From Halogeometricum borinquense DSM 11551 (lineage in GTDB: Archaea > Halobacteriota > Halobacteria > Halobacteriales > Haloferacaceae), in assembly GCF_000172995.2 (NCBI RefSeq), contig NC_014729.1:2340001-2372000 (forward strand): 32,000 bases of DNA, given 5' to 3'. Position numbers and translations under genes: made by a program. Under the pieces are notes generated by a model. It was not told the origin of the DNA. It worked only from the letters and a program-made list of their open reading frames with translations, and searched no databases. Of this stretch, positions 5,671 to 30,042 are shown one piece after another. Every line of letters starts with the position of its first letter. Position 1 is the first letter of the stretch.

Positions 5671-5746
5671 GTGGCAACCCAGACGGTGGACGGGTAAAAC
5701 GGTGACTACCTCGAAGCGAGGGTGGGCGGGCGCGACAGCACACGTC

Positions 5747-8009: not shown

Positions 8010-8018
8010 TCTGACGTA

Positions 8019-9248: not shown

Positions 9249-9317
9249 ACGCGTCGCTCGTCGGGACGGTACTTATCCTTCAGTGAGGAGGAAAGTGAGG
9301 CGGAGAAGTCGCGGACG

Positions 9318-10100: not shown

Positions 10101-10254
10101 CGTGTATCACCACTCACGGGAAGAGAACTATCGTCGTCGCGGAACGCGATCCATCGTCTGTGCGACCATGTAAACTGCTTTGCCTACCGCGGGATAAACT
10201 CGTCGTTCAACGGCACTTCTTGCGACGGGTGGAGTCAAAAGGACGGCTCGACCG

Positions 10255-10854: not shown

Positions 10855-10915
10855 ACTAGTTCGAAATGTCGGAGGCGCTTAGACTTAGCTCTCGCGGCAC
10901 GTGTGCGATGTTCGT

Positions 10916-12495: not shown

Positions 12496-12546
12496 ACGGA
12501 GATGAGGACGGATGAAAGAAAAACGCGGCGAGTCGGGCGATACAAT

Positions 12547-13794: not shown

Positions 13795-13932
13795 CCCCGG
13801 TACTTCAAGGGTTCCGGAACGCCGTTACGGCGCGTCTTGCCGTCTCTGACGGTCGAACAGACGACGCTTTGTATCAACTGTGATAGTTTGTACCGCGGGT
13901 TTTTACGCGTTCCTCACAAAGTTGGGAGCAGC

Positions 13933-14103
13933 ATGAAAACGACGCGGAAGGGGATGCGAGAGGGAGAACTGGAGAAAGATACGTACGACAGATTAACCTG
14001 CGCCGAGTGCGGGGAATCGCTCAAGAAGCGGAACGACCCGGACGAGGTGTTCTCAGTGCGTATCTGTCCGACGTGCGAAACCGAGTGGAAAGAACTCAGA
14101 TAG
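13933..14103 (+). CDS. small zinc-ribbon protein (CxxC ... CxxC)
   Basis: MKTTRKGMREGELEKDTYDRLTCAECGESLKKRNDPDEVFSVRICPTCETEWKELR (56 aa). The TATA-like GGTTTTTAC lies about 26 nt upstream of ATG 13933. Confidence 0.5.
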   Translation: MKTTRKGMREGELEKDTYDRLTCAECGESLKKRNDPDEVFSVRICPTCETEWKELR

Positions 14104-15198: not shown

Positions 15199-15266
15199 GC
15201 GAACTCGTAGGACACGATGGCGTAAACGCGCTCCGACTTCCGCGGTATCGCCGCGTCGTCGGATCG

Positions 15267-16460: not shown

Positions 16461-16541
16461 ACTCTGAGGTCCAGAGCCACACGTATGAATATTCCTTCGT
16501 TTTGACGCCGCTTATACGACAGTATTCGTCGTCCAGTTGAC

Positions 16542-17468
16542 TTACTCGGCGTCGGATGTCGCATCCGAGTCGTCCGCCGACTCACGGAAAGCGTCGATAG
16601 CCGCGCGGTACCCCGTTCGGTACGTCGGATACGCAAACTCGTAGCCGAGTTCACGCAGTCGGTCGTTCGAACACCGCTTGCTCGTCAGAATGCGCCGACG
16701 AGCGGCCTCCGAAAGGTCCGGGTCGTCCAGTCGTTCCTCCTTGGTCCGTTTTGGCGGATGCGAGACGCCGCACTCGTCGGCCAGCCAGTCCGCGAACGAC
16801 CATTTGTCCACGGGTTCGTCGTCTACAACCAGAACCACGTCGTCGCGGGCGGCGTCGGCTTCGAGAAGGAATCGGACGGCACCGGCGGCATCGTCGCGGT
16901 GGACCATGTTGAGATAGCCCTCCGTGACGGGACCGGTAAGATATCTGTCGAGTCGGTACCGGTCCGGGCCGTACAGACCGGCAAACCGTGCGACTGTTCC
17001 GTCGATACCCGCCGCTGACGCGTCTTCGACGGCAACCCGCTCGGCTTCAGCGAGAACGCGCGTCTTGTCAGTCGTCGGGTCAAGCGACGTCTCCTCGTCT
17101 ACCCAGCCGCCGCCGTGATCGCCGTAGACGCCCGTCGAGGAGGTGTACACGAGTCGGTCAGGTTGCGACGCTCGTCCGCCATACTCGTCGATGACGTTCT
17201 GAAGTCCTTCGACGTAGACGCGCCGAGCGGCCTCGGCACCGCGCCCGCCGGAACTAGCAGCGAACACCAGCCAATCGGCGTCCGGAAGCGGCGCGAGAGA
17301 ATCGGGATCGGTCACGTCCGCACGAGCGGGCGAGAACCCAGCGGATTCGACCGCCGCGAGGCCGTCATCGGAGCGACGGACGCCCGTTACGTCGTGACCG
17401 CTCTCGGCCAACTGACGGCCGAGTTCGAGACCGACGTAGCCGCATCCGAGTACGAGTGCGTGAGCCAT
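16542..17468 (-). CDS. NAD(P)-binding SDR / NAD-dependent epimerase-dehydratase family protein
   Basis: The N-terminal Rossmann motif is ALVLGCGYVGLELGRQL, with YTSSTGVYG further in. The protein is 308 aa. Confidence 0.85.
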   Translation of the reverse strand: MAHALVLGCGYVGLELGRQLAESGHDVTGVRRSDDGLAAVESAGFSPARADVTDPDSLAPLPDADWLVFAASSGGRGAEAARRVYVEGLQNVIDEYGGRASQPDRLVYTSSTGVYGDHGGGWVDEETSLDPTTDKTRVLAEAERVAVEDASAAGIDGTVARFAGLYGPDRYRLDRYLTGPVTEGYLNMVHRDDAAGAVRFLLEADAARDDVVLVVDDEPVDKWSFADWLADECGVSHPPKRTKEERLDDPDLSEAARRRILTSKRCSNDRLRELGYEFAYPTYRTGYRAAIDAFRESADDSDATSDAE

Positions 17469-17900
17469 CTATCGGTCGTTTCGCTCGGCGATGTAGCCGT
17501 GGATGGCTGCCAGTTGTTCGAGCGTCATCGACGTTCGACCCTCAAGGGCCTGCTGTACCTCCTGTCCGGAGAGGTCCAACGTCACGTTCGAGGCGATGGT
17601 GTCCACGTCAAGCACGCCCGTCGTCATCCCCATCAGGAGGTGATCGCGGAGTTCGAGGACGATAGCTTCGCTGTCGGGGTAGTCGTCGGAAAGTGCCAAC
17701 AGAGCCGCTGCATCCTCGACGTGCATCTCGGGGACTGCACCGTCCGCGAGGGCGGCAACCTGCGCTTCGTCTACGCCGGATTCAGCCGCCGCCGCTTCGA
17801 CGCCAACATCGTCCACGACGGTCCGAATCTGCGTTTCGTACGCCTCCCGCAACTCGGTCGTCGATAGCGCTGCTGGGTCGTCGGCCGCGTCGTAGAGCAT
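17469..17900 (-). CDS. conserved hypothetical acidic protein
   Basis: I place the start at ATG 17898-17900 (MLYDAADDPAALSTTELREAYE...). The upstream part of the track ORF overlaps the 3' end of the 1004-aa gene in another frame and is R/S-rich. Its TAG stop abuts the SDR ATG (TAGATG). Confidence 0.6.
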   Translation of the reverse strand: MLYDAADDPAALSTTELREAYETQIRTVVDDVGVEAAAAESGVDEAQVAALADGAVPEMHVEDAAALLALSDDYPDSEAIVLELRDHLLMGMTTGVLDVDTIASNVTLDLSGQEVQQALEGRTSMTLEQLAAIHGYIAERNDR

Positions 17901-17979
17901 AGACGTACTCACTGCGCCTCGGCCAAAACCGTTTCCTGTTGCGTTCACTCCACACACCGAACACTCCCTCGCCCAGTTC

Positions 17980-20900
17980 TTACTCCCGCGGACACCGCCC
18001 CGTCGGCGTATCACATCGTGGCCCCGGTGCCGAACCGGACCACGCCTCGGATGTCTCGAAGGCGTCGCCGTCGATGTCTCCGACGCCGTTACCGCCGGGT
18101 GGAACCGCGGCGACGACGACGGTCCGTAGCTCGAAGCCGATGCGTTCGTTCGATCCGATGGCCTCTCGACTTCCGTCACCGTCAACGTCCAAACGAACGA
18201 CGGACCCATCGCGGACGTACGTCGTCGGCACCGCACCGTCACCCGCCGAAACGGTAAAGCGAGCGTACGCACCGTGTGCTTCGACTACCCAGAGATTCGT
18301 CGTCGCGACCCACGGACTCATCGTCGGCGAGAGCGGAAGCCCCGCCGGAACCGCACCGAGCGTCCCGTTCAGCGCGTGACTCGTCAGGCGGTCCGCACCG
18401 CGGGAGGCCGCTTCCCGGCCGAGTTCTCGCACGAGCGTCCGCGTCCGAGTCGCGGTTCCGTTCACGGCCGCCTCCGAAACGCGAACCCGCGATGCTGTGG
18501 TCGTCTCGCGCAACTCGACACGGAGCGCAGTCGCCACGCGGTCCTGAGCCATCTCTCCGTCCAGATCCGCTTCCGTCGCTATCGCGGTCGCCAGTGAGTC
18601 GTTCGACGCGGCGACAGCACGTTGGCCGACGCCGTCCCAGTGGGCGAGTCCGGCGGCAACAGCATCTTCGCTCTCTGCGTGCGTCAGGTCCGTCTCGCGT
18701 TCGACCGTCGATGCGGCCGTCTCACGGACGGGAGCGAGCGAGTGCTTGACCTCCTTTCGGAGTTCGTTGCTTCGGCGGCGGAGCGTCGAATCGGATTGGA
18801 CGGCGAGCGTCCGGTCCGCGGCGACGAGTGCGCGCCCGGCAGTTCTGAGCGACACCTCACCGCCGGGACCGAAGATGTCACCGACGACAGCGTCAGCGAG
18901 GTCCCCGTACGGAAGCGTGAACAGGTTGGTGTTGCGCGCGGCGAGTGGGGTGTATGTGGCGTCGTCTGCGACACCATCGATGGCTCGTCCATCGACGCCC
19001 GACAGCGAGAGATACGCCGGGTCGCCGTCGGGGACGAACGCCGCTGAACTGTTCGACAATTCGCGGGTATCGGCGGTCGTCCGACTCGACAGACGGTCCC
19101 GCGTCGCCGTTGCGTTCACACCGCGCGAAGCGAGTGCGTCCTGAAGTCGGTCGTTCCGACCGGCGGCCTCGGCGGCCCGTTCGTCCAGTCGTGCGAGGAC
19201 CGTATCGAGATATGCCGCGCGTGCGGCGACACGAACCCGGTCTGCGACACCGTCGTACGTCGCCGGGGCATCGACCAGTTCCGCTCGCCGGTCGCGGAGC
19301 GCCGCCGCCAGTGTAGCTGCGGTGTTGGCGTGACCGGTGGCGGTTTCCTGTGCCGCGACGTCCACCGAGACGTTTCTGACCCGCTCACGGAGCGCTGCCA
19401 CGTCGGCGTACACCCACGCGCGAAGCGCAGACGGGCGGTCGGTTTCGGCGCGTGCGGGATCGTAATCCGCGCTACCCGTTACTGCTTGACGAGCGACGGT
19501 GTTCGCACCACCCCGAGCGGCGAGTTCGTCGCGCGCGAGACGGGCGACGGATTCGAGATTCGGTCCCGAAAGCGCCCCACCGCGTTCGAACAGCGGTTCT
19601 ACGGCGCGGTCCGGTCCCGGCAGCGACCGAAGCGACCCGACGACGGCGACGCGGACGCGGTACCGGTCGGTCCACTGCGCCGTCGTCGTTCGACTCGAGT
19701 GATTCGCCGCGCGCCACGTCCGAGTAACGGTGTGCCGGACGACGACTTGCCGCGTCGTCGTCTTGAACGCGCGTGCGCCGACGCCGACAGACGGCGGTGC
19801 TGCTGTCCCGCGATCAACTACGGAGACATCACTATCTACGTCTTCGGCGGCGAGCGACCACGACACGTCGGACGAATCAGGTGCCTCGGGCGCGGGACGG
19901 TGTCCCTCGTTTTCGTCGAGGACGTCGCTGACGACTGTCACGCTCGGCGTGTATCCGGTGCGAATGACCGAGTCAAGAGCCGTGTCGGAGGAATCATCGG
20001 TCCCGCGAAGGAACGCGAGAAACGCGTCATCTGCAGTTTCGTTGACGCCGACAGTGAGAGTTCCCGTCGGCATCGTAGTCGGTGTCGGTCGGGGGTTCGG
20101 ACTCGGTGTCGCAGAGACGAGTTTCTCGGTCGTCGATCCGCCAGCGACCGGGGACAGGAGGTCGGTAAGGCCGGTTCGGAGCGTCGCCGCACGAACACCT
20201 CGCTTGGCGTCGGGATCAACGCGGCCGAACGATGCACGCTGGGCGGCGAGGACGCCCGCGTTGGTCGAGAGTTCAACGTGGCGGTTGCCGAGGACGTTCT
20301 CGATTGGCGCACCCGCGTACTGACCGAGGGCGCGTGCCTGCGTGATAGCAAGGAGTCCTGCCGTCGTGCGACGCGCCAGACCGGGCGCATACACGGGCGA
20401 TTCGTTCAGTCGTCGCTGGTAATCGGTCGTCCGCGCGTGGAGTGCGAGGACGGGAACTGCGACGGTCACGCGGCGTGTCACTGTCCGGGTGGCGACCACG
20501 CGGTCCTCGTGAGTAGCGACGAGCGAGACGTTACTAACGGCGACTGTGAGAGCGCGACCCTCGTTCTCACTCGATACGGAGACGTTCCGAACCGCCGCAT
20601 CAAGACCGGCAGAGAGCGGTGGCAAGGTGGCTCTCGCTGTCGTCATCCCGCGACGATGTTCGACTCCCGAAAGCGCGTCACGGGCAGCGAGTGCGATCCG
20701 GAGCCGTAGATAGTTATGGAACGTTTCGTTCGGGCCGAGCGTTCGACCGACCGCGGAGTTCGCGGGTGTCGTCACGGGATCCCTCGCCGCCGCGCATGCC
20801 GCTTCGCGGACAGCGACCCGGAGCGCGGCAGTCGTCTCGGCGTCCACACGTTCCATGGCAACGTCTGTCGAACGGTCCACGACGCCCGTATCGGGCGACG

Positions 20901-20994
20901 CGAGCGACGCGGCAAACGTCGAACTGCCGACGAGAAGCAGAACGCCGACGAGCGCGAACGGAACGCGTCCGCGGTTGTCGTCTGCGAGGCGCAT
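17980..20994 (-). CDS. 1004-aa N-terminally anchored protein, last gene of the Tad/T4P-like locus (function unknown)
   Basis: The N-terminus is MRLADDNRGRVPFALVGVLLLVGSSTFAASLA (basic residues followed by a hydrophobic helix). The protein has many NxS/T sequons and a P/T-rich linker (SATPSPNPRPTPTTMPTGT). The C-terminus carries CDTPTGRC. The ATG overlaps the upstream stop (TGATG at 20992-20996). Confidence 0.75.
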   Translation of the reverse strand: MRLADDNRGRVPFALVGVLLLVGSSTFAASLASPDTGVVDRSTDVAMERVDAETTAALRVAVREAACAAARDPVTTPANSAVGRTLGPNETFHNYLRLRIALAARDALSGVEHRRGMTTARATLPPLSAGLDAAVRNVSVSSENEGRALTVAVSNVSLVATHEDRVVATRTVTRRVTVAVPVLALHARTTDYQRRLNESPVYAPGLARRTTAGLLAITQARALGQYAGAPIENVLGNRHVELSTNAGVLAAQRASFGRVDPDAKRGVRAATLRTGLTDLLSPVAGGSTTEKLVSATPSPNPRPTPTTMPTGTLTVGVNETADDAFLAFLRGTDDSSDTALDSVIRTGYTPSVTVVSDVLDENEGHRPAPEAPDSSDVSWSLAAEDVDSDVSVVDRGTAAPPSVGVGARAFKTTTRQVVVRHTVTRTWRAANHSSRTTTAQWTDRYRVRVAVVGSLRSLPGPDRAVEPLFERGGALSGPNLESVARLARDELAARGGANTVARQAVTGSADYDPARAETDRPSALRAWVYADVAALRERVRNVSVDVAAQETATGHANTAATLAAALRDRRAELVDAPATYDGVADRVRVAARAAYLDTVLARLDERAAEAAGRNDRLQDALASRGVNATATRDRLSSRTTADTRELSNSSAAFVPDGDPAYLSLSGVDGRAIDGVADDATYTPLAARNTNLFTLPYGDLADAVVGDIFGPGGEVSLRTAGRALVAADRTLAVQSDSTLRRRSNELRKEVKHSLAPVRETAASTVERETDLTHAESEDAVAAGLAHWDGVGQRAVAASNDSLATAIATEADLDGEMAQDRVATALRVELRETTTASRVRVSEAAVNGTATRTRTLVRELGREAASRGADRLTSHALNGTLGAVPAGLPLSPTMSPWVATTNLWVVEAHGAYARFTVSAGDGAVPTTYVRDGSVVRLDVDGDGSREAIGSNERIGFELRTVVVAAVPPGGNGVGDIDGDAFETSEAWSGSAPGPRCDTPTGRCPRE

Positions 20995-21872
20995 CAGCGA
21001 CCACCCTCCGATTCATCGCCCCACGTCCGGACAACGATTCTGACCTCACTCACGGAGACGGCGGCCGCAGCATCCGCGGGCGAGTCGTAGCGCGCCCGCA
21101 GATCAGACTCGACTCGCGGCGCGAGGGCGTCCGCAAGGCGCTGGTTCGCTACATCGGTGTCGGCATCGGCTATCGGGTCTTCGACGGAGACGTTCAGTGC
21201 TGCGGCGAGACGTGCGTAGCGGTACCGAACGAGCGTCGAAACGGGCGGGTCCCCGCGGAGAGCGAGGCGCGTTCGACTCGCTGGCGCAACCGTTTCGATA
21301 GTTTGCGCCGCGACGGCGTTCGAGAGCGACTCGAAGTCATCCGTCTCGTTTGCCGGAAGCGACTGCGTTCGCGTGGGAATCGTCAGCGTCGCCGCGTCCG
21401 TCGCGGCCGACTGCGGCGGAGACGCACCGACGGCGACGTGTCCTTCGACCGGTGCATCGGGGTAGGGCCGCCACGCGGCGTCGATTCTGAGACCGGTCGG
21501 CACAAGTCTGGCCGTGATGGCCTCCCGAACTGACGACCGGAAGTCGTCGCGTGCGTGTGTCACCGGCGTGCCGTCGAAACCGGCGGTGCCGACGGTAACG
21601 CGGGCGAGCAGCCCCGCAAGTGACCCGTGTGTCGTTCGCTCGAACTCCGGACCCGACGTTCGCCGGAAGTCGGCACCGCTCTCGTTCGCCCGCCGCGCAC
21701 CCGGCGAGAGCGAGTAGTTCACTGTCGCCGTACTGGTAGCAAGCACGTTCGCAACGGCATCTGAACGGCCGTCGTCGAGGGTCGGCTGCGACCCTGCATC
21801 GGCGGTGGTAAGACCGACGACGGCCGCCCCAAGGAGCAACAGGAACACCGCGGCGTCGAGGGTGGCGTTCAC
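20994..21872 (-). CDS. N-terminally hydrophobic protein of the Tad/T4P-like locus (function unknown)
   Basis: The GTG start at 21870-21872 overlaps the upstream stop (GTGA), with an alternative GTG at 21878. The N-terminus is MNATLDAAVFLLLLGAAVVGL. The track ORF extension upstream is R/S/P-rich and overlaps the preceding gene. Confidence 0.65.
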   Translation of the reverse strand: MNATLDAAVFLLLLGAAVVGLTTADAGSQPTLDDGRSDAVANVLATSTATVNYSLSPGARRANESGADFRRTSGPEFERTTHGSLAGLLARVTVGTAGFDGTPVTHARDDFRSSVREAITARLVPTGLRIDAAWRPYPDAPVEGHVAVGASPPQSAATDAATLTIPTRTQSLPANETDDFESLSNAVAAQTIETVAPASRTRLALRGDPPVSTLVRYRYARLAAALNVSVEDPIADADTDVANQRLADALAPRVESDLRARYDSPADAAAAVSVSEVRIVVRTWGDESEGGR

Positions 21873-22300
21873 GACCACACCACCACCGTCAGACGGCCGG
21901 GTTCGACCTGTCCGGGTGAGAGACGAACGCTCACGAGGCGACTCGCGCGGTCGGTCGCCTCCTGCGGGACGGCTGGACCGACGGTCCACACGTCGTCCGA
22001 GGCGGTGAGCGTAACGTTGAGACGGCGGCCATCCGGCCCGCGAGTCATTGCGTCGGGAAGTCGCTCGGCGTCTACCACGCCACCGTCGTCAATAACGTCG
22101 TGAACGCGGTCAAGCGTTGGATCAGCGACGGCTCGATCCTCAAGGAGTGGAATCGAACCACCGAGGACGGTCACATAGAGGCTCAGTCCTGCGCAGACGG
22201 CAAACAGCGCGGCCAATGCGGCGACGGGTGACGTTTGGGCGCGTGCCCGTCTCCGCTCGCCCGTCCGAGTAGCGCCGTCACGCGTCCACGAGGACAACAT
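21869..22300 (-). CDS. pilin-like protein (class III signal-peptide-like N-terminus) of the Tad/T4P-like locus
   Basis: ATG start at 22298-22300. The N-terminus ...GERRRARAQ/TSPVAALAALFAVCAGLSLYVTVLG resembles an archaeal prepilin motif: basic residues, a small residue plus Q, then a hydrophobic helix. It overlaps the upstream gene by 23 nt. Confidence 0.6.
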   Translation of the reverse strand: MLSSWTRDGATRTGERRRARAQTSPVAALAALFAVCAGLSLYVTVLGGSIPLLEDRAVADPTLDRVHDVIDDGGVVDAERLPDAMTRGPDGRRLNVTLTASDDVWTVGPAVPQEATDRASRLVSVRLSPGQVEPGRLTVVVWS

Positions 22301-22757
22301 CGACTCCCTCCCAAGTCGTTTTGCGGACGAGAAGCGTGCGGTCCACCTCGCGCCACGTTGCGTTGCTTGTGCGGGTGCGCGAATCGATAACGGCCTGTTG
22401 GAACGCCGCCGGCGAGTCGAAGACGGCCGATGGGTGCGCACCGTGAATCACGTCACGAAGCGGCGAGTCACCCGCCGGAACGGGTGTGACCGGAGCGAAC
22501 GCGAACGTCGCGTGCGCCGTCCCGGCGTCGTTTCGGAGTGCGAGACGGCGCGTTTCGAGTTTGACCGCCGTCGCGTCCAGCGGATGTTCGGCCGTCGATG
22601 CGTACTCGGTCGCCGCCACACGGTCTACCGTCTCAGCCGCCGCAGTAGCGTTCGGCGGTGGGGCTGTTGGGAGTCCAGACGCCGCGCCGACGAGGGCGAC
22701 GCCCGCAAGCGAGAGCCCCAGCCACGCGTACCACGAATCGAGGGGAACGTCGAGCAT
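22278..22757 (-). CDS. N-terminally hydrophobic protein, first gene of the four-gene accessory module (function unknown)
   Basis: 159 aa with N-terminus MLDVPLDSWYAWLGLSLAGVALVGAASGL and an NAT sequon. It is preceded by its own TATA core (22777-22789), 22 nt from the ATG. Confidence 0.65.
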   Translation of the reverse strand: MLDVPLDSWYAWLGLSLAGVALVGAASGLPTAPPPNATAAAETVDRVAATEYASTAEHPLDATAVKLETRRLALRNDAGTAHATFAFAPVTPVPAGDSPLRDVIHGAHPSAVFDSPAAFQQAVIDSRTRTSNATWREVDRTLLVRKTTWEGVDVVLVDA

Positions 22758-22776
22758 GAGCCGTCTGGCCGCGCTC

Positions 22777-22789
22777 CCGTATATAAACC
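22777..22789 (-). promoter_or_regulatory. promoter core GGTTTATATACGG (TATA box) upstream of the four-gene accessory module
   Basis: The 13-mer and its 22-nt spacing to ATG 22757 are identical to those upstream of the ATPase gene. The flanking bases are also similar (CGCG.C.CCGTATATAAACC on the plus strand). Confidence 0.6.
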
Positions 22790-22805: not shown

Positions 22806-24533
22806 TCAGAACACGAGTGCCGCACCACGGAACGCAGCGAGATACGCGGCCGTCGCTGAAAGGAGCGCGAGACCGACGCGGTAGCCGACGAGCGTTCGGT
22901 CGAGTCCTCGGTCGAGACCGGTCGCGAGGGTAGTCAACACAACCGCGAGAACGAGAACGTACGCACCGACGGCCGTGCCGAGGAGTTCGGGTCCGAGCGC
23001 CTGCGCCCCGTCTTCGACGAGTGCCGTGTCCGCGGCACCCATCCGCGCCGCCATTGCCACCGTGGCACCACCGACTAACGGCGCGAACAGGGCGGCAGTG
23101 TTCGAGAGCGTTCCCGTCACCGACGCCAGTTCGCGCCGGGCCTCACTCTCGACGCGGCGAAGTTCGCTGAGATGGTCGGCGGTGGCGACGACAGCGTGGC
23201 CTGCCGGTCGGCCTTCCGTCGCGGCCACGGAGAGCAGTGCAGCGGCCGCCCTCGTCCGCGGACTGGGAACGTCGGCGAGGACACCATAGCGCCCGAGAAA
23301 CGCCTCGCGGACGCTGACGCGGAGGCGGCGACGGACGCCCGCGGCGTCGGCGAACACCGCTCCTGCCGGGGTCGAAACGGCGTCCGCGGCGGATTCGAGT
23401 GCGACCTCGACAGAGTCACCAGCACTGACACGCCGACCAACCAGCGAGAGTACGTCGTCCAGACCCGATTCAACCTCGCGGACGCGTTCTCTGACCCGTG
23501 CCATCGGGTAGTAGCGTCCGACCAAGCCCGCTCCGACGCCTGTGCCGGCGGCGGTGAGCGCGTCGGCCCACGGGGCGACGGCTGAACCGACGAACCAGCC
23601 GACGATACCGCAGAGAACGCCTGCCCCGACCGCGGGGAGAGCGGACGACGGGACATCCGGATGGCTCGAATCGACGCGCGGCGGGGCGAGTGCGACCGGC
23701 CGCCGGAGCAATATCCACGCGCTCGCGGCGACGAGACCGAGCGGCAGAAGTAGATCATAGACGGCTACGAACGCCGCAGTCGGGACGGCGACACCGCCCG
23801 CACGGGCCGCCGGGAGGACGCCAACGAGCGCGAGTGGGAGGAGAACACCGAAGGCGTAGACGCCGGTTGTCGGGCCGCGAACGTCCGCCGCGAACGACGC
23901 GAGTTCGTCGCGCGTCCCGTCGAGGACAGCGTCGAGCGCGCGTTCTAACCCTCGCTCGCGTTCGTCCGGCTGTGCGTCGGCGCTGGCGAGAAGAAGCGAG
24001 ATAGCACGCTCCAACGCGGGGAAGTGGTCGCGCCACTCGCGTGCGAACGATTCGAATCCGGAGTTCGGCGTACCGCGGGCGCGACGGACGTGTTCTGCGA
24101 GACTGTCAGCCAGCGGTCCGTCGGCCGTGTGCGCGGCGAACGACGCGGCACGTTCGGGCGTTGGTCCGAGTTGCATCCGGAGCGTCGCGCGGCCGACAAG
24201 CGCAGGCGTCTCGCCCAGTGCGCGCGTCCGGCGGAGTCGGGCTGCGACGACCGGGAGTCGGTGAACCGCATGCGTTCCGACGAGTCCGATAGCGAGGGAC
24301 GCACACAGGCGAACAACGATCGGTGAGCGCGGTGCGAGTAGTGAAACGAACGCGAACGAGACGAGTGTGAGCGGGAGGCTCAACACGTACCCCGCTCGAA
24401 CGACCATTTCGGCGTCTGTGTCGCTGCCGAGATACGACAGCGCGGACCGGACATCCTCACCCGGTTCGACCGACCACGGATACACCTGCGCGAGCGACTC
24501 AACGAGATGGGAGCAATTCGACGGAGCAGTCAT
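22806..24533 (-). CDS. type II secretion system F-family membrane protein (TadB/TadC-, PilC-, FlaJ-like; two-domain)
   Basis: 575 aa with two blocks, each a cytoplasmic helical region followed by TM helices. The ATG overlaps the ATPase stop (ATGA at 24530-24533). This is the typical partner of a secretion ATPase. Confidence 0.8.
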   Translation of the reverse strand: MTAPSNCSHLVESLAQVYPWSVEPGEDVRSALSYLGSDTDAEMVVRAGYVLSLPLTLVSFAFVSLLAPRSPIVVRLCASLAIGLVGTHAVHRLPVVAARLRRTRALGETPALVGRATLRMQLGPTPERAASFAAHTADGPLADSLAEHVRRARGTPNSGFESFAREWRDHFPALERAISLLLASADAQPDERERGLERALDAVLDGTRDELASFAADVRGPTTGVYAFGVLLPLALVGVLPAARAGGVAVPTAAFVAVYDLLLPLGLVAASAWILLRRPVALAPPRVDSSHPDVPSSALPAVGAGVLCGIVGWFVGSAVAPWADALTAAGTGVGAGLVGRYYPMARVRERVREVESGLDDVLSLVGRRVSAGDSVEVALESAADAVSTPAGAVFADAAGVRRRLRVSVREAFLGRYGVLADVPSPRTRAAAALLSVAATEGRPAGHAVVATADHLSELRRVESEARRELASVTGTLSNTAALFAPLVGGATVAMAARMGAADTALVEDGAQALGPELLGTAVGAYVLVLAVVLTTLATGLDRGLDRTLVGYRVGLALLSATAAYLAAFRGAALVF

Positions 24534-26473
24534 CGGCGGACCTCGCGCACATCGGCCGCGGCGTTCGGAAGGTCATCGGGTCGCGTCTGGTCTGTTTCGG
24601 CGAGGTGCGAGAGCGTCGCTGTCCGGCGGTCGAGTGCGTCGAGTACGTCGGCGTACGATTCGTCGTGCCGGGCGAGCGCGGCGACCAACGAACTATCACC
24701 ACGCGTGACGACTCCAGTCTCTTGAATACCGTTGCCGTCGCGGCCGTAGAGCGTCTCGAAATGAACGCCCTCGTCGGTCTGTCGAACCTCGGCGACCGTC
24801 TCGACTCGCCTGTCGGAACCGTCACGAGTGCAGGTGACAACGAGGTCTGTCGCCGCGAACGACGATTCGGGGACGCCGAGGTCCGAGACGACCCGTTCGC
24901 GGACGGCTGCGGGCGAGTCGCCGTGAATCGTCCCGAGAACAGCGTGGCCGTGTGCGCCGACTCGCATCGCTTCGTAGAGGGCGCTGGCCTCGTCACCCCG
25001 AACCTCGCCAACGACGAGAGCGCCGTCTCCGAGCCGGAGCGCGGTACGGACGGCATCTGTCGGCGAAAAGGAACCGTCCTCACCGAGGTCGGTGTGGAGG
25101 GGTTGCACGTCGCGCCCGCCGTCTCTGAGCGCCGCGACCGGGAGTTCCGGGGTGTCTTCGACGGTGACGAGACGCGTCGCCGCCGGGAGTTCCCAGAGAA
25201 GAGAGCCAAGAAGCGTCGTCTTGCCCGCACCGCGCGTTCCCGCGACGAGGCCCGTCGCACCGCGTTCGACAGCAAACGAGAGAAACGCCGCCGTCTCGGC
25301 CGAGAGGGTCCCCGAAGCAACGAGACCGGGGAGCGTCCACGCTCGACCGTCGTGTGCGCGGAAGGCGAATCCGATGCCGTCGCTCGCAGGGGCGGTGACG
25401 CCAGCGACGCGGACGCGTGACCCGTTGGGCGCGTCGATCGCGGCGTCCAGTGCGGGCGACGCGCGGGAGAACCCGCGTCCGCTGGCGTGTCGGAACCGAG
25501 ACGCGAGCGCCGCGGCCCCATCCGGCGTGAGACGGACGTTCGTCCGGATACGCTCACCGTCGATCGCAACGCGTACCGGATTTGACGCAACCGGAGCCGA
25601 CGCAACCACGTCGGTCACTCGTGGATCAGCAAACAGGTCGTCGAGAACGCCGTTCCCGCGCGTGTGACGGTTGAGTACGTCCGTTAACGTCTCCACTGGG
25701 TCGTCGTCGTCCGCGACGTGCCGCACGGCTCGGCCGGCAGCACGCTCTCCGCCCTGCACGATTCCGCGCGCGAGACACTCGTGTGCCGCCGCCAGCGTCG
25801 CCGTCGCGTCTGCGTCGAGTTCGTGCGCAACGGGCGTGAGATGATACAGTCGGCCGTCGCCGGTCCGGTACAGACGAACCGTCGCGCCGGTATCAAGTTC
25901 TCGCCGGTCGAGGAGAGCGGCATCCGACGGAAGTCGCCGAGCGACACGGGAACGGGCGACTGACGGTCCCACGTAACTCCACAGGAGACTCTCGTAATCG
26001 TCTGCACGTTCGACACCCGCGGCAAGGCCTGTCTCGGCCGCGAGAGTCGCCACCGGTCCCGCCCGACCGGTTGCTCGCCGGACCGCATCTATCGGGTCTC
26101 GGGTGGCGCGTTCTGCGAGCGATTCGTCGTGGAATCCGACGCGTTCGGCGAACCGACCTGCCGCGAGCAAAACACCCGCAGCATCGTCGTCGTAGGTGCG
26201 TTCGAGACCGTCAGCACGGACGCGAACCACGTCCGCGTCTCGGTCCGCGAGTGCGCCAATGACGGTGGCACGGCACGCGGGAACGCCGGCGAGGTCACCG
26301 CCACCGGGACAGTCGGTCGCATCGACGACGAGCTCCGTCCGGTCTGTCGTCCGGCCGGTCGGCGTCTCGAACGAGTGTTGGCACCGGCAGGCGGATTCAT
26401 CGTCATCGGTGTCGGTATCGAGCGAGAGCGCCGAACCGACAGCGGCGATGCAGGCGGTGAAGTCGAGAGGCAT
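24530..26473 (-). CDS. type II/IV secretion system ATPase (TadA/CpaF-VirB11-PilB superfamily) with about 250-aa N-terminal extension
   Basis: Motifs present: Walker A GTRGAGKTTLL, Asp box VTVEDTPEL, Walker B ALVVGEVRGDEA and His box HAVLGTIHG. I place the start at ATG 26471-26473 (MPLDFTAC...), 22 nt downstream of a TATA core. The upstream part of the track ORF overlaps the preceding gene. Confidence 0.9.
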   Translation of the reverse strand: MPLDFTACIAAVGSALSLDTDTDDDESACRCQHSFETPTGRTTDRTELVVDATDCPGGGDLAGVPACRATVIGALADRDADVVRVRADGLERTYDDDAAGVLLAAGRFAERVGFHDESLAERATRDPIDAVRRATGRAGPVATLAAETGLAAGVERADDYESLLWSYVGPSVARSRVARRLPSDAALLDRRELDTGATVRLYRTGDGRLYHLTPVAHELDADATATLAAAHECLARGIVQGGERAAGRAVRHVADDDDPVETLTDVLNRHTRGNGVLDDLFADPRVTDVVASAPVASNPVRVAIDGERIRTNVRLTPDGAAALASRFRHASGRGFSRASPALDAAIDAPNGSRVRVAGVTAPASDGIGFAFRAHDGRAWTLPGLVASGTLSAETAAFLSFAVERGATGLVAGTRGAGKTTLLGSLLWELPAATRLVTVEDTPELPVAALRDGGRDVQPLHTDLGEDGSFSPTDAVRTALRLGDGALVVGEVRGDEASALYEAMRVGAHGHAVLGTIHGDSPAAVRERVVSDLGVPESSFAATDLVVTCTRDGSDRRVETVAEVRQTDEGVHFETLYGRDGNGIQETGVVTRGDSSLVAALARHDESYADVLDALDRRTATLSHLAETDQTRPDDLPNAAADVREVRR

Positions 26474-26492
26474 GGGGTCGATGGTCGCGTCT

Positions 26493-26505
26493 CCGTATAT
26501 AAACC
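26493..26505 (-). promoter_or_regulatory. promoter core GGTTTATATACGG (TATA box) upstream of the secretion ATPase
   Basis: On the minus strand, TTTATATA lies exactly 22 nt upstream of ATG 26473, directly after the stop of the preceding gene. The same 13-mer occurs at 22777-22789. Confidence 0.6.
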
Positions 26506-26976
26506 TCAGCCAGAGTAGGCACGCGAGGCGACCAGTACAGGACCATCCGCTGTCCGCCGAAGCGCGACCGAGATCGGTCGGTCGCCGTATCCGCGGAGGA
26601 CGATAGGACCGTTCGGTGTCCGGAGTGCGACCGGGAGCGAGAGCCGACGCGTTATTTCCGTGCCACCGGCCACCGCGTAGGTCACGACCGACCGGTTTCC
26701 CTGTCCGCCGGGTTGCCCACCGACAGCGACGTAATCGATACCTGCGCTCGTCCACGTCGGCGACGGGAGCGAGAACGTCACGGTTCGCGTCGGCGCGACA
26801 GCGGCGTCACTCGTCGCATCCGAACCGTACGCGAGCGCCGACCCGGCCGCCGAGAGTCGTTCGACGGAAGTGTCCACTCTCGTCGCCGTTCGGTCGGCCC
26901 GGGCGTCTTCGACCGCCGGAAGCGACGCACCGAGGACCGCGACAGCGAGGACCGCCGCGAGAACGACGCGAATCAC
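26506..26976 (-). CDS. single-pass membrane/secreted protein of the Tad/T4P-like locus (function unknown)
   Basis: The GTG at 26974-26976 lies 1 nt after the stop of the upstream coiled-coil gene. The N-terminus is MIRVVLAAVLAVAVLGASLPAV, followed by a soluble domain that looks beta-rich. Confidence 0.6.
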   Translation of the reverse strand: MIRVVLAAVLAVAVLGASLPAVEDARADRTATRVDTSVERLSAAGSALAYGSDATSDAAVAPTRTVTFSLPSPTWTSAGIDYVAVGGQPGGQGNRSVVTYAVAGGTEITRRLSLPVALRTPNGPIVLRGYGDRPISVALRRTADGPVLVASRAYSG

Positions 26977-26977
26977 G

Positions 26978-27451
26978 TCACAGCGCCTCGCGGAGGCGTG
27001 CGGCGAGAGAGTCCTCCGCCTCGTCCCCGTCGGTATCGCAAGCGGTGTCGTCACGGCGGTCCGCCACGTCGCCGACTGTCTCCGCGTCGTCCGGAAGGCG
27101 TTCGACGACGAGGCCGTCATCCTCGTCGTGCGCGGCGGCGAGTTGTTCGGCTATCGCAAGTGCGAGATCGGCGCGGCGTTCGACTGATTCGTTTACCGCC
27201 TGCACGCCGCCCAGGAGACCACGAACCGCCTCAAGTTCGGCCGACAGTTCGGACACACGCCGGTCGAGAGCCGCTATCGACTGTTCGAGATCCGCCACGG
27301 TCGTCTCGGACAGCGCTTCGGCGGCCTCGGTATCCGTGTCGGTACCCGACGCGTCGTTCGACGGTTGGTCGCGGTCGTCGTCAGTCAGAGCGCGTTCAAC
27401 GGCGTCGAGACGGGCTGCAAGCGTTGTGAGGTCGGTTTTGTCATCCGGCAT
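26978..27451 (-). CDS. acidic coiled-coil protein, first gene of the Tad/T4P-like locus
   Basis: ATG at 27449-27451 gives MPDDKTDLTTLAARLDAVERAL ... DLEQSIAALDRRVSELSAELEAVRGLL. It shows heptad-like periodicity and very acidic tails. The longer track ORF (to 27877) is antisense to cetZ and S/P/R-rich. Confidence 0.65.
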   Translation of the reverse strand: MPDDKTDLTTLAARLDAVERALTDDDRDQPSNDASGTDTDTEAAEALSETTVADLEQSIAALDRRVSELSAELEAVRGLLGGVQAVNESVERRADLALAIAEQLAAAHDEDDGLVVERLPDDAETVGDVADRRDDTACDTDGDEAEDSLAARLREAL

Positions 27452-27474
27452 GGGGCGACTGGTCCCGTCATGTG

Positions 27475-27482
27475 AAATAAAA
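27475..27482. promoter_or_regulatory. AT box (AAATAAAA / TTTTATTT) in the 76-bp divergent intergenic region; candidate shared TATA for cetZ and the pilus-like locus
   Basis: It is the only AT-rich element between 27452 and 27527. On the minus strand it reads GAGGTTTTATTT, 23 nt before ATG 27451, the same geometry as the two promoter cores below. Confidence 0.45.
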
Positions 27483-27527
27483 CCTCGGTGGGGAAAGTTG
27501 AAGGTCGGTACTAACGAGTCATCCGAT

Positions 27528-28613
27528 ATGAAGACCGTCCTGATAGGTGTCGGCCAGGCCGGCGGGAAGCTTACCCGCGAACTGGTTGACTTCGATGAAC
27601 GAATGGAGTTCGGCGCGGTTCTCGATGCAGTCGCCGTGAACTCCGCGAAGGCTGACCTGCGCGACATTCCGTTCGAGACGATTCTCATCGGACAGGACCG
27701 CGTGAAAGGCCACGGGGTCGGCGGCGACAACGAACTCGGCGCGGAAGTCATGCAAGCAGACAAGCGCGAGGTGCTCTCAGCACTCGACGGCCGCATCACC
27801 GCCGAAGCCGAAGCGATTTTCGTCGTCGCCGGACTCGGCGGCGGGACCGGAAGCGGTGGCGCACCCGTCCTCGTCAATGAACTCCAGCAGATCTACGACG
27901 TACCAATCTACGCTCTCGGCATCCTTCCCGGCGACAGCGAAGGCGCGATGTATCAGGTGAACGCCGGACGGTCGCTGAAGACCGTCGCTCGCGAAGCAGA
28001 TTCGCTCCTCCTCGTTGACAACGACGCGTTCCGGAGTTCGGGCGAGAGCCTCGAACAGGGATACGACGCGATCAACCGCGCTATCGCCCAGCGCGTCGGA
28101 CTCCTGTTCGCCTCCGGTGAGGCAGTCGAGGGCGTCGCAGAGAGTGTCGTTGACTCCTCTGAGGTCATCAACACGCTCCGCTCGGGCGGCATTTCGGCGC
28201 TCGGCTACGCCGCCGCTGAGTCCGCCGATAGCTCCGAGGGCAACATCAACACCGTGATGAGTACCACGCGGCGCTCTCTCCTCACTGGCACGAGCCTCCC
28301 CGAGGCGACAACAGCTGATTCGGCGCTCCTCGTCGTCGCGGGCGAACCGGACAAGATACCTCGCAAAGGCGTCGAGCGCGCCCGCCGATGGATCGAAGAG
28401 GAAACCGGAAGCCTCCAAGTTCGTGGCGGAGACTTCCCGCTGGATTCCGGACGCATCGCGTCGCTCATCCTTCTCGGCGGTGTCGAGCGCTCCGACCGGC
28501 TTGAAGCGTTCATGCAACGCGCAAAAGAGGCCGTTAAAGAAGCCGAAGAGACCGAAGAGCGCGAAGACCCCGCCGAGACGTGGCGGAACGACGAACTCGA
28601 AGACCTCATCTAG
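27528..28613 (+). CDS. cetZ: CetZ-family tubulin/FtsZ-superfamily GTPase
   Basis: MKTVLIGVGQAGGK (GxGxxG), AVNSAKADL, RVKGHGVGGDNELGAE, the T4 tubulin signature GLGGGTGSGGAPV, T7-like LLVDNDAF and an acidic C-terminal tail. The GGGTGSG form and overall pattern match the CetZ sequences I remember rather than FtsZ. Confidence 0.9.
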   Translation: MKTVLIGVGQAGGKLTRELVDFDERMEFGAVLDAVAVNSAKADLRDIPFETILIGQDRVKGHGVGGDNELGAEVMQADKREVLSALDGRITAEAEAIFVVAGLGGGTGSGGAPVLVNELQQIYDVPIYALGILPGDSEGAMYQVNAGRSLKTVAREADSLLLVDNDAFRSSGESLEQGYDAINRAIAQRVGLLFASGEAVEGVAESVVDSSEVINTLRSGGISALGYAAAESADSSEGNINTVMSTTRRSLLTGTSLPEATTADSALLVVAGEPDKIPRKGVERARRWIEEETGSLQVRGGDFPLDSGRIASLILLGGVERSDRLEAFMQRAKEAVKEAEETEEREDPAETWRNDELEDLI

Positions 28614-28639
28614 TCGGCTCGGTCCCCCTTTTCCCCTCC

Positions 28640-29035
28640 TGGCGTTCGAGAACCCGTCGAGACGGACTCGTCTGTGTCAGCGTGACCGATGAATCGAGAC
28701 GGATCAAGTGGCGGAGACGAGACTGTGCGTAAAGCGTGAGATAGCGAGCGGAGACGGGACACTGAGTGAACCGCCTCGGGGTCAAGTGGTTCGAGAGACT
28801 TCGTCTCTCGTCATCACGGAAATCTTTGATTTCCGTATGACTCCGAGGCTTCCCGTGGGTTAGTCGGACACTCCCACTCGACCATCGGCCTGATAGCCTC
28901 GAACGGTCGGTTGGGTCACGGTCGGGGCGTCCACGGCCCCCGATGCCCGCCGTCTCAAAGTCGCGAAGCGACTTTGCGGGCTGCACAAGAGCTCCGCTCT
29001 TGTGAACGTCGAACCTTCCGAACAACGGGAAGGCT
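28640..29035 (-). ncRNA. candidate TnpB omega-RNA (reRNA) scaffold / right-end region
   Basis: The position (3' end of tnpB and downstream) and the density of perfect 8-9-bp hairpins fit the known omega-RNA layout. The hairpins lie at 28924-40, 28956-76, 28984-29004, 29014-33, 28792-810 and 28817-35. The ends are not determinable by eye. Confidence 0.3.
28787..28845. repeat. twin-hairpin module, copy A (inverted relative to copy B)
   Basis: Hairpin 1 is cgagagac-ttc-gtctctcg (28792-28810) and hairpin 2 is cggaaatc-ttt-gatttccg (28817-28835). A 7-bp closing stem gcctcgg/ccgaggc (28773-79 / 28843-49) encloses both. Confidence 0.7.
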
Positions 29036-29557
29036 GTTGAGAGCAGGCACATTCCAATCGAGTTTCTTCACGCCTTTCACGGCGATGTTGACGCTTGCAC
29101 TACGGTCGCTGTGGTCTTGATGGGAACAGTCCTTGCACTTGAACCGCTTCTTGTTTCGGTTCGCACGCTCCGTATTCCCACACATCGGACACCGCTGACT
29201 CGTGTACTCGGGGTTAATCCACGCGGTCGGAATCTCCTTGAACGACGCCTTGTACGACGTATAGAACTGAAGGGCGCGGAACGGGAGGTGGTGCAAGCGT
29301 CGGTTCATCCGCGTGCCGTAGTCGATACTGTCGCGCATTTCTTTGAGGTCTTCAAAGACGATGCACGGCTTCTCGAACTGACGGCTCCACTCCACGATGT
29401 GACGACTCACCTTGTGGAGTCGGTCGCGGACAAACCGTTCTTCGCGCCCTTCGAGCGTGTCGTGGGTACTGTCTTTCCCCGCGTTCTGGACGCGCTTCCG
29501 CATCGTGAAGTAGCGGTGACGCTCGAACTTGATTTCGGGGAAGTCAATAACCAACAT
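28860..29557 (-). pseudogene. tnpB: tnpB (RNA-guided endonuclease, IS200/IS605 OrfB) remnant: 5'-truncated, possible 3' frameshift
   Basis: The remnant retains a RuvC-II-like IVFEDLKEM, the Zn ribbon CPMCG...FKCKDC and RuvC-III-like DHSDRSASVNIAVKG. The N-terminal WED/REC/RuvC-I half (about 200 aa) is missing. After the stop at 28955 the reading continues in another frame (RRRASGAVDAPTVTQPTVRGYQADG) down to 28860. Confidence 0.7.
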
Positions 29558-29559
29558 GT

Positions 29560-29944
29560 CCTCAACGCCATCCTCGAACCAATCGAGGACTCGCTGGAAG
29601 CGAGTTTCCGCGACGTGTGCAGCGAGTACGACTACGAGATACTGTCGTCGTCCGAAAATCTCTGATTTTCGGGATCAAGAGAGACGAAGTCTCTCGAACG
29701 ACTCCACATTTCACCCGACCACACACATCTGTTCCTCTCCGCCCACCCAAGATACGCTCCGAGCGAGATTGTTCGAACGGTCAAGAGCATCACGGCGCGG
29801 GAGATGTGGGAACAGCACGAACCGTTCTTGGAGGAGTATCTGTGGGGCGGCGGGTTCTGGGAGGAATCGTACTACGTTGGGACGGCAGGCGACGTTTCGA
29901 CAGACACGATTGAGCAGTATATCGAGCGGACGGAACACGTTTAG
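29560..29944 (+). pseudogene. tnpA: tnpA (IS200/IS605 Y1 HUH transposase) remnant: N-terminus missing, in-frame TGA inside a hairpin insertion
   Basis: My own translation gives VLNAILEPIEDSLEASFRDVCSEYDYEILS [SSENL*FSGSRETKSLER] LHISPDHTHLFLSAHPRYAPSEIVRTVKSITAREMW...SYYVGTAGDVSTDTIEQYIERTEHV*. The HUH motif (DHTHL) and a C-terminal Tyr (QYIE) are present. There is no start codon or N-terminal beta strand. Confidence 0.7.
29646..29703. repeat. twin-hairpin module, copy B (inside tnpA remnant)
   Basis: The hairpins are ccgaaaatc-tct-gattttcgg (29652-29672) and gagagac-gaa-gtctctc (29679-29695). The reverse complement matches copy A over 21 consecutive nt (gttcgagagacttcgtctctc). The second hairpin is then related, with compensatory changes. 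Confidence 0.7.
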
Positions 29945-30042
29945 CGGAGCGTACGGCCTTCACCCACGGGGTCAAGCCCCGAGGCACTCGGCCTGCTCAG
30001 CCTGTAGAAACCGAGACAGCGCGTGAAGATCGAGACCCGGCG

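Follow-up and report, generated by a model that had tools for sequence, protein, structure and literature searches.

Is the short gap between a tubulin-like gene of Halogeometricum borinquense and the pilus-like gene cassette that faces it one common promoter, and does the arrangement tie the two together in function? Genomic clues to the roles of CetZ paralogues beyond CetZ1 are few, and the adjacency of cetZ2 and T4P-like genes is among them; it also hints at the purpose of the silent haloarchaeal pilB2/C2 systems; the clue is already in the literature, and the window studied here (the whole 32,000-nt stretch of DNA that was analysed) is one more instance of it. We consider it likely that the gap holds two divergent, back-to-back and probably leaderless promoters at the known cetZ2–pilB2/C2 junction, with the cassette forming a regulon of its own and cetZ2 being regulated alone.

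On the plus-strand side of the junction is the cetZ2 gene:
27528..28613, plus strand: cetZ2 coding sequence, 361 aa, tubulin/FtsZ-superfamily GTPase (Pfam Tubulin and CetZ_C)

The product matches PF00091 Tubulin (8.6e-29) and PF21011 CetZ_C (9e-66), full length. Aligned in one ungapped-like stretch over residues 1–348 is H. volcanii CetZ2 (PDB 4b45, 564 bits); CetZ1 (4b46, 329 bits) matches in two stretches, with about 20 CetZ1 residues (246–265) unmatched. The product lacks the long CetZ1 M-loop insertion and resembles H. volcanii CetZ2 more than CetZ1; it is 76% identical to a protein named CetZ2 by NCBI and matches a protein of Halogeometricum borinquense at 100% identity. The sequence-only reading had called the gene a CetZ; the Pfam and PDB matches agree and, by sequence comparison, the window's CetZ is the CetZ2 orthologue. 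An ORF overlapping the cetZ stop (28606–29052, minus strand) has zero homologues in related loci and is probably no gene.

Running in the opposite direction is the cassette, which comprises the following genes:
26978..27451, minus strand: DUF7310 gene, the cassette's first, encoding a cytoplasmic coiled-coil protein (Pfam PF23991, 5e-22)
26506..26976, minus strand: DUF7311 gene, with a GTG start 2 nt past the DUF7310 stop and an N-terminal hydrophobic helix (Pfam PF23993, hydropathy)
24530..26473, minus strand: secretion/pilus ATPase of PilB2 type, TadA/CpaF/FlaI/GspE2 family (Pfam T2SSE, PF00437)
22806..24533, minus strand: polytopic membrane protein of 575 aa in the TadC/PilC2 position, its start overlapping the ATPase stop by 4 nt
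22278..22757, minus strand: DUF7283 gene, pilin-like, with an N-terminal hydrophobic helix (Pfam PF23954, 7.5e-55)
21869..22441, minus strand: DUF7285 gene, start uncertain, probably near 22300 (Pfam PF23956, N-terminal inspection)
20994..21989, minus strand: DUF7284 gene, start uncertain (Pfam PF23955, 6e-90)
17980..20994, minus strand: DUF7286 gene, the cassette's last, encoding a predicted surface protein of 1004 aa, anchored N-terminally (PF23957 over its full length, hydropathy)

The ATPase has partial NCBIfam matches to TadA, FlaI, VirB11 and TrbB, PDB matches to 2oap, CpaF and FlaI at 1e-24 to 1e-18, a Walker A motif (GTRGAGKT) at residue 412 and cysteines in its N-terminal domain. These Pfam, NCBIfam and PDB matches bear out the earlier view that cetZ adjoins a type IV filament ATPase cluster. 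The protein in the TadC position has at least six hydrophobic segments and found no family match in Pfam, NCBIfam or PDB sequence searches; it is a putative platform protein, on the strength of its gene position and of Makarova 2016 and Losensky 2015. Hydropathy gives one N-terminal hydrophobic helix each in DUF7311, DUF7283 and DUF7286, and homologues have been called prepilins in the literature; a TM segment was looked for in DUF7310 by the same means and none was found. Homology begins at residue 1 for DUF7310 in relatives and for DUF7283 in 22 loci. An Rfam scan of the whole window detected no RNA family.

Owing to its coiled-coil protein, Cys-containing ATPase N-terminus, large surface protein and FtsZ-family neighbour, the cassette is tentatively placed by gene content in archaeal T4P subclade 4F, and DUF7310 probably corresponds to arCOG07564 of Makarova. 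Systems of this subclade (Makarova, Koonin & Albers 2016, PMC4858521; bioRxiv 10.64898/2026.04.22.720090) share with it all of these features, the unique coiled-coil protein being cytoplasmic and the ATPase being of the VirB11/TadA family, and also have a TadC-like partner and pilin-like proteins, for which the cassette has putative counterparts; no filament has been reported for any of them.

The cetZ2–pilB2/C2 link is already published, having been reported by Brown & Duggin 2023 (PMC9856176), by Makarova 2016 for T4P subclade 4F and in the same preprint. In H. volcanii (Brown & Duggin 2023), HVO_0745 beside HVO_0746–0753 is the same CetZ2 with the same head-to-head ATPase/TadC/pilin-like cassette, and the outer neighbours (epimerase, DUF5791-type hypothetical, DHH protein and phosphodiesterase) are also the same. 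There is no substantive difference from that description, to which H. borinquense adds a further instance; intergenic promoters are absent from that analysis, and the two-promoter architecture and the threefold cassette module described below are additions made here. HVO_0739/CdpA was considered as a cassette gene and rejected, lying about 7 kb off on the other side of cetZ2.

The cassette is head-to-head with cetZ2 in 26 of 29 related loci from about ten genera (Halogeometricum, Halopelagius, Haloferax, Halobellus, Halogranum, Haloquadratum, Halobaculum, Halolamina, Halorubrum, Salinibaculum and Halorussus). The sample consists of loci whose CetZ2 shares 66% identity or more with the query: DUF7310, DUF7311, the ATPase and TadC face cetZ2 in 24 of the 27 loci found by CetZ protein and in both of two extra look-ups, and in L007 and L028 the end of the contig falls inside the cassette. 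The adjacency, at first suggested only as possibly conserved, is thus far from confined to a single genome.

Separating the ATGs at 27528 (plus strand) and 27451 (minus strand) is a 76-bp spacer (27452–27527). Within it is AAATAAAA (27475–27482), 23 nt (27452–27474) from the minus-strand ATG and 45 nt (27483–27527) from that of cetZ; sequence reading and translation reproduce the positions first given for cetZ, the opposing ATG, the spacer and this AT box. Runs of at least seven consecutive A/T number ten in the whole 32-kb window (about 0.02 expected per 76-bp spacer), and because they are so rare the AT box is a non-chance feature. Three of the ten sit 22–23 nt upstream of minus-strand start codons within the locus. 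The sequence-only reading took the AT box to be the sole AT-rich element of the spacer and common to both genes. It is indeed the only pure A/T run there; a second promoter-like element, GGGGAAA-GTTGAA, lies at 27490–27502. The predicted elements of the spacer are:
27475..27482, minus strand: TATA box of the predicted leaderless DUF7310 transcript, the AT box of the earlier reading (TTTTATTT on the minus strand, −31 to −24)
27460..27468, minus strand: ACGGGACCA box at −17 to −9 of the DUF7310 start, a cassette-specific promoter-proximal element and candidate regulator site
27490..27502, plus strand: predicted cetZ2 promoter, GGGGAAAGTTGAA (BRE-like GGGGAAA at 27490–27496, weak TATA-like GTTGAA at 27497–27502)

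If the AT box were a single bidirectional element, it would recruit TBP both ways; the DUF7310 mRNA would be leaderless, that of cetZ2 would carry a leader of about 20 nt, and the two sides would be co-regulated. Archaeal TATA boxes are nearly symmetrical, which favours this, as do the status of the box as sole W8 run in the spacer and the retention of a 74–78 bp spacer in 14 of 28 loci, distant genera included. Spacer length among relatives ranges, however, from 74 to 170 bp, and at any length the AT box keeps a distance of 22–24 nt to the minus-strand start wherever the cassette is present (the DUF7310 start in a few loci, L006 and L027, being set by eye or PWM). The leaderless TATA geometry proposed for the minus-strand gene therefore recurs in every related locus. 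Where the spacer is 93–170 bp, the box keeps with that gene and comes to lie 60–140 nt from the cetZ ATG; a single-TATA bidirectional promoter would hold a fixed distance to both starts across orthologous loci, and on the cetZ side the distance varies with the spacer. The plus-strand side of the box also has no BRE-like purine run upstream.

Fixed relative to cetZ2 is the other element. An ATG-anchored alignment of 28 loci carries about 0.9 bit per column at −39 to −26 of the cetZ ATG as against about 0.2 in the flanks, with an invariant A at −33, and GGGGAA(A/C)-GTT(G/C)AAG holds this position across spacer lengths. In the window the element lies 25 nt upstream of the cetZ ATG, a leaderless geometry from which we infer the transcription start and leaderless status, as we do for the cassette transcripts. 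L010, L019 and L022, which have lost or never show the cassette, all retain the element, and in the first two the AT box is gone as well. These observations indicate separate promoters on the two sides, at the level of sequence, rather than one common AT box, the box moving with the minus-strand gene; together with a cetZ2-sized transcript and no cassette transcripts in H. volcanii (below), they make co-regulation from a shared box very unlikely.

Since the TATA-like GTTGAA of cetZ2 is weak, being interrupted by G/C, it is conceivable that in the compact 76-bp versions the AT box drives a cetZ2 start with a leader of roughly 20 nt. In spacers of 74–78 bp the pre-initiation complexes predicted for the two sides would touch, their BREs lying 1–2 bp apart, and cross-talk or a common regulator is possible between such promoters.

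The arrangement at the minus-strand start recurs inside the cassette, where two further promoters are predicted:
26482..26503, minus strand: predicted internal ATPase promoter (TTTATATA at 26496–26503 and ACGCGACCA at 26482–26490, 22 nt upstream of ATG 26473)
22766..22787, minus strand: predicted internal promoter of the DUF7283–7286 block (TTTATATA at 22780–22787 and GCGCGGCCA at 22766–22774, 22 nt upstream of ATG 22757)

The module consists of TTTATATA followed by a CGCGACCA-like box at −17 to −9, and stands ahead of DUF7310, the ATPase and DUF7283 at three predicted leaderless promoters. Its box is conserved as (A)CG(C/G)G(A/G)CCA in these promoters across genera, and the internal ATPase promoter begins directly past the DUF7311 stop codon, a position that it also has in nearly all related loci. 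A PWM for which DUF7283 promoters were the sole training set scores 34.9 bits at the DUF7310 start (27451), 29.0 at the ATPase and 38.6 at DUF7283, its own training class, with a null of 0 hits per 32 kb. Over about 600 kb it picks out, in almost every locus, the starts of DUF7310 and the ATPase, and hardly anything else; the cetZ promoter was never matched, and the module was never found ahead of cetZ2. As far as sequence goes, this suggests that the cassette is one regulon under a factor recognising the CGCGACCA box, with cetZ2 excluded.

Under the preferred reading of two separate promoters, the AT box at 27475–27482 would be the TATA of the DUF7310 transcript only, and cetZ2 would be driven by its own BRE-like/weak-TATA element at 27490–27502. 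The cassette would be expressed as three units (DUF7310–DUF7311; ATPase–TadC; DUF7283–7285–7284–7286), each preceded by a strong TATA, a CGCGACCA-like box at −17 to −9 and then the start codon. One factor recognising that box would control them all, cetZ2 being without the module. With a private weak BRE/TATA before cetZ2 set against a threefold module in the cassette, the two are probably not co-regulated in cis.

Expression tables for H. volcanii likewise point away from tight co-expression of cetZ2 and the cassette. In exponential phase (Babski 2016) there is no primary TSS for HVO_0745 or HVO_0746, and one internal TSS lies within cetZ2. A 1177-nt transcript co-extensive with cetZ2 (Laass 2019) is labelled 'as' (antisense) in the table and was taken as sense after strand decoding via the Babski iTSS sequence, which makes it weak evidence; the transcript table has none between 667032 and 673755, that is, across the pilus-like genes. 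Co-regulation of cetZ2 and pilB2 was also sought in the CsmR, quorum sensing and mating transcriptome papers, which gave nothing usable.

The adjacency itself may be historical and functionless, a 4F cassette having been inserted once between cetZ2 and the DUF5791/epimerase genes and then passed on by vertical descent with sporadic loss. When matrices of pairwise identity are compared, CetZ2 correlates with the cassette proteins at r = 0.87–0.93 (Mantel p = 0.001) and with the flanking phosphodiesterase at r = 0.92. Since the two are equal, the cassette has been inherited together with cetZ2, and the signal does not rise above that of a housekeeping neighbour, in keeping with a historical origin. 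Brown & Duggin (PMC9856176) compared the cassette to a mobile element and found identical flanking genes in pili-associated and non-associated cetZ2 regions, pilB2/C2 elsewhere in 13 of 41 species, and the link missing in Natrialbales; other literature has CBS or SMC genes also neighbouring 4F loci. A clean deletion of about 9 kb in Halorubrum coriense (L022), which joins the beginning of DUF7310 to the C-terminus of DUF7286 and leaves cetZ2 intact, the differing promoter architectures and the seemingly unrelated H. volcanii expression fit the same account. It has more difficulty with a head-to-head order and short spacer kept in about ten genera at 66–90% CetZ2 identity, and with Halorussus, where a rearrangement relocated DUF7283–7286 and cetZ2 still lies beside DUF7310–TadC. 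A CetZ-family tubulin also adjoins a pilus-like locus in Thermococcales, beside clade 1 T4P loci (Szabo 2007, Makarova 2016, Brown & Duggin 2023); there the CetZ group, the ATPase clade and the pilins all differ from those here, so the association is independent, and two accidents would be hard to explain. On balance we rate a purely historical adjacency at somewhat short of an even chance.

The conserved synteny and the convergent association in Thermococcales speak for a possible link between proteins, in which CetZ2 filaments would act at the envelope to position or scaffold the 4F machine, perhaps via DUF7310, with coordination exerted in trans and not in cis. DUF7310, cytoplasmic, coiled-coil and unique to this cassette system, would suit such a role; the scaffold idea was put forward by Brown & Duggin (PMC9856176), and both partners rise outside exponential growth (pilB2 8.5-fold in adherent Hbt. 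salinarum, PMC4292770; CetZ2 in H. volcanii stationary phase). Weighing on the other side are the retention of cetZ2 without the cassette (L010, L019, L022 and Natrialbales), reported CetZ2 phenotypes that consist of plate-shape maintenance and need no pilus, and the lack of any reported filament from a 4F cassette. We hold such inferred cooperation between CetZ2 and the machine to be doubtful. The fuller proposal, in which DUF7310 would be the adaptor through which CetZ2 polymers physically position the 4F PilB2/C2 machine, or scaffold it, at the envelope, is less likely still; if true, a tubulin-family cytoskeleton would direct a type IV filament apparatus, an idea already in print (Brown & Duggin 2023).

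The haloarchaea-restricted pilB2/pilC2 pair and the prepilin-like genes downstream of it are also found in the pil-2 locus of Halobacterium salinarum (Losensky et al. 2015, PMC4292770), which is very weakly expressed and induced in adherent cells, and whose pilC2 carries an in-frame stop in strain R1. There, seven ORFs from pilB2 on were found by RT-PCR to be co-transcribed, whereas extra internal promoters are predicted here before the ATPase and DUF7283. The meaning assigned above to the CGCGACCA box is a prediction, and (A)CG(C/G)G(A/G)CCA at −17 to −9 offers a defined bait motif for the presumed cassette regulator and an aid to finding the inducing conditions.

At the head-to-head junction of cetZ2 and the type IV pilus-like cassette, sequence reading and translation of the window bore out all the coordinates of the sequence-only reading.

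27528–28613, plus strand: cetZ2, from the ATG to the ORF end, 361 aa by translation
27490–27496 and 27497–27502, plus strand: cetZ2 element from the comparison of loci, GGGGAAA and GTTGAA, then 25 nt to the ATG
27452–27527: intergenic spacer, 76 bp
27475–27482: AT box AAATAAAA, 23 nt to the minus-strand ATG and 45 nt to the cetZ2 ATG
27451, minus strand: ATG of the DUF7310 gene, divergent from cetZ2

The plus-strand protein has Tubulin and CetZ_C domains (Pfam) and scores 564 bits against H. volcanii CetZ2 (PDB 4b45) versus 329 bits against CetZ1 (4b46), the alignment to the latter being interrupted at the CetZ1-specific M-loop insertion. It is identical (100%) to a Halogeometricum borinquense protein and shares 76% identity with a protein named CetZ2 by NCBI; these scores and identities mark it as a CetZ2 orthologue.

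Leading away from the junction on the minus strand are the cassette genes, of which the first encodes DUF7310, a coiled-coil protein without a TM segment, the second DUF7311, and the third an ATPase of the TadA/CpaF/FlaI type, which carries a Walker A motif and has Cys in its N terminus. Occupying the TadC position is a 575-aa polytopic membrane protein with no family match by sequence, followed by DUF7283, DUF7285, DUF7284 and DUF7286 (1004 aa). Beyond the cassette are DUF5791, an NAD-epimerase and a DHH protein, and on the opposite flank of cetZ2 a phosphodiesterase and DUF5788; these outer neighbours agree with the conserved cetZ2 neighbourhood given by Brown & Duggin 2023 (PMC9856176). The distance from the cetZ2 stop to the phosphodiesterase gene is ~1.43 kb in the window (28614–30042) and only ~110–150 bp in related genomes, with reduced G+C in this part (0.567 over 29001–30000). 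Located there on the minus strand is a truncated TnpB (28955–29557) with Cas12f1-like TNB and Zn-ribbon domains and PHROG transposase matches; this insert just 3′ of cetZ2 is probably an IS200/IS605-type remnant.

Whether the adjacency is conserved had been left as a synteny question, and the answer is yes. Searching a genome set with one member for each GTDB species with the CetZ protein gave 27 loci (66–90% identity), and tblastn with the window's proteins found this head-to-head arrangement of cassette and cetZ2 in 24, including one cut by a contig end (L007); the same layout was seen in two further look-ups, Haloferax denitrificans (also contig-limited) and Halorussus. L010, L019 and L022 depart from it. 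Yet the conserved adjacency is already known: Makarova et al. 2016 (PMC4858521) reported that halobacterial T4P loci of subclade 4F come with an FtsZ-family gene and encode a unique coiled-coil protein. Brown & Duggin 2023 (PMC9856176) showed that cetZ2 specifically is the gene beside the pilB2/C2 regulon; they saw the pair in Haloferacales and Halobacteriales (12/22 regions) and not in Natrialbales. A 2026 preprint (bioRxiv 10.64898/2026.04.22.720090) makes the point again, with either CetZ2, a CBS protein or an SMC homologue encoded beside 4F loci.

Only ten runs of at least 7 consecutive A/T occur in the 32-kb window, at 63% G+C, so the AT box is no chance feature. The proposal that it serves both genes is contradicted by the comparative data, as alignment of the upstream regions of all loci resolves two separate conserved elements. 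The first, a BRE-like CGAG(G/A) with a TTTA(T/A)(A/G)T TATA box, is on the minus strand, 22–24 nt from the DUF7310 start codon in every cassette-bearing locus. On the plus strand, GGGGAA(A/C)-GTT(G/C)AAG lies at −39 to −26 of the cetZ ATG in 28/28 sequences (Halorubrum form GGGGAAAAGGTATTA), with ~0.9 bit per column versus ~0.2 in the flanks and an invariant A at −33. The start-to-start spacer is 74–78 bp in 14 loci (Halogeometricum, Halopelagius, Halogranum, one Halobellus and Halorubrum) and 84–170 bp in Haloferax, other Halobellus, Haloquadratum, Halobaculum, Halolamina, Salinibaculum, Halorussus and one uncultured-haloarchaeon MAG (L011); as its length changes, the minus-strand TATA keeps to DUF7310 and the GGGGAA element keeps to cetZ. 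The latter is also kept in L010 and L019, where cassette and AT box are missing. These distinct elements, each tied to its own gene, argue for a separate predicted promoter of leaderless geometry for cetZ2 and for DUF7310. In the window, the cetZ2 element has the BRE(CGAAA-like)/TATA arrangement and position, roughly −28, described for H. volcanii promoters by Babski et al.; its TATA is interrupted by G/C, suggesting that the promoter is weak or depends on an activator.

Three of the ten A/T runs are TATA boxes 22–23 nt upstream of minus-strand start codons.

27475–27482, minus strand: TATA before DUF7310 (start 27451)
26496–26503, minus strand: TATA before the ATPase gene (start 26473), immediately past the DUF7311 stop
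22780–22787, minus strand: TATA before DUF7283 (start 22757)
26482–26503 and 22766–22787, minus strand: internal TATA TTTATATA then a CGCGACCA-like box, 22 nt 5′ of the ATPase and DUF7283 starts

The longest runs (AAAATAATAATTATAATT within 7044–7061, ATTATATT and ATTATTTT within 1131–1172) presumably belong to promoters of other, unrelated genes.

Common to the three promoters is the module GAGG-TTTATATA-N5/6-(A)CG(C/G)G(A/G)CCA-N8-ATG, with a GC-rich box at −17 to −9. To avoid circularity, a PWM was trained on DUF7283 promoters only, taken from 24 loci, and scanned over both strands of all loci. At ≥12 bits it picked out the starts of DUF7310 and of the ATPase gene in almost all loci, with only two other matches in about 600 kb, none at any cetZ promoter and 0 per 32 kb in Markov-resampled sequence. 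This predicted three-copy promoter module is cassette-specific and conserved across genera, and we read the cassette as comprising three transcription units that share a predicted control element specific to it, with cetZ2 outside this predicted cis-regulon. No published description of the module was found, and a literature search on the DUF names was also empty; the new content, dual back-to-back leaderless promoter architecture and a threefold cassette promoter module, is modest. The top off-cassette match (32.9 bits), in L014, a Halolamina MAG, at 18883 on the minus strand, lies ~110 nt upstream of a minus-strand ORF (17482–18771) that is Nre-like by eye only, and may be a coincidence or an extra regulon member. 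An Nre gene adjoins TadC in Halorussus too.

In L022 (Halorubrum coriense, 8590–9926), an ORF from the conserved DUF7310 start, its promoter intact, continues straight into the C-terminal ~180 residues of DUF7286, a clean internal cassette deletion of ~9 kb. This locus keeps an intact cetZ2 and cetZ2 promoter, as well as DUF5791, epimerase and DHH genes; by such gene content, cetZ2 would not need the cassette. L019 (Halorubrum amylolyticum, 7028–11077) has three tandem cetZ paralogues, the two upstream copies at 36–38% identity, with a TnpB-like gene upstream, no cassette and an intact cetZ2 promoter element. The cassette is split in L029 (Halorussus, 3378–21080): DUF7310–DUF7311–ATPase–TadC is still head-to-head with cetZ2, and DUF7283–7286 are ~7 kb off on its other side. 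Directly 3′ of cetZ2 there is a TFB (TFIIB) gene, and after TadC a Nre_N/Nre_C gene. Pairwise-identity matrices of CetZ2 and the cassette proteins correlate at r = 0.87–0.93 (Mantel p = 0.001), and those of CetZ2 and the neighbouring phosphodiesterase at 0.92. Within the sampled loci the junction appears old and vertically inherited rather than repeatedly re-created, which is no proof of a functional link.

Expression was assessed from published H. volcanii data. The Babski 2016 table has no primary start for cetZ2 (HVO_0745) or the pilus-like unit in exponential phase; the sole TSS between 663,935 and 673,744 is internal to HVO_0745, and by our calculation its 71-mer corresponds to T276..R299 of CetZ2, placing the cetZ2 ATG at ~667,052 on the reverse strand. 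The 1,177-nt minus-strand transcript of the Laass 2019 table (665,856–667,032) is co-extensive with the cetZ2 CDS and has no 5′ leader, but is given little weight because the table's 'as' label conflicts with the derived strand; the same table has zero transcripts between 667,032 and 673,755, the region holding those pilus-like genes that lie upstream of HVO_0753. CetZ2 protein goes up in stationary phase and helps to maintain plate shape, and in Hbt. salinarum the very low expression of pilB2 rises 8.5-fold when cells are adherent (PMC4292770). The published data show no co-expression and point to unrelated expression of cetZ2 and the cassette under standard conditions. The suggested cytoskeleton-positioned pilus-like apparatus is a hypothesis already stated by others, the scaffold idea having been put forward by Brown & Duggin 2023 (PMC9856176). 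In L028 (Haloferax denitrificans, 11520–12530), cdpA (PF23600/PF23601), a gene of cell division, is found ~7 kb downstream of cetZ2. CetZ2 was reportedly recovered in an FtsZ2-HA pull-down (PMC12126565), a hint of a division-related rather than pilus-related CetZ2 partner.
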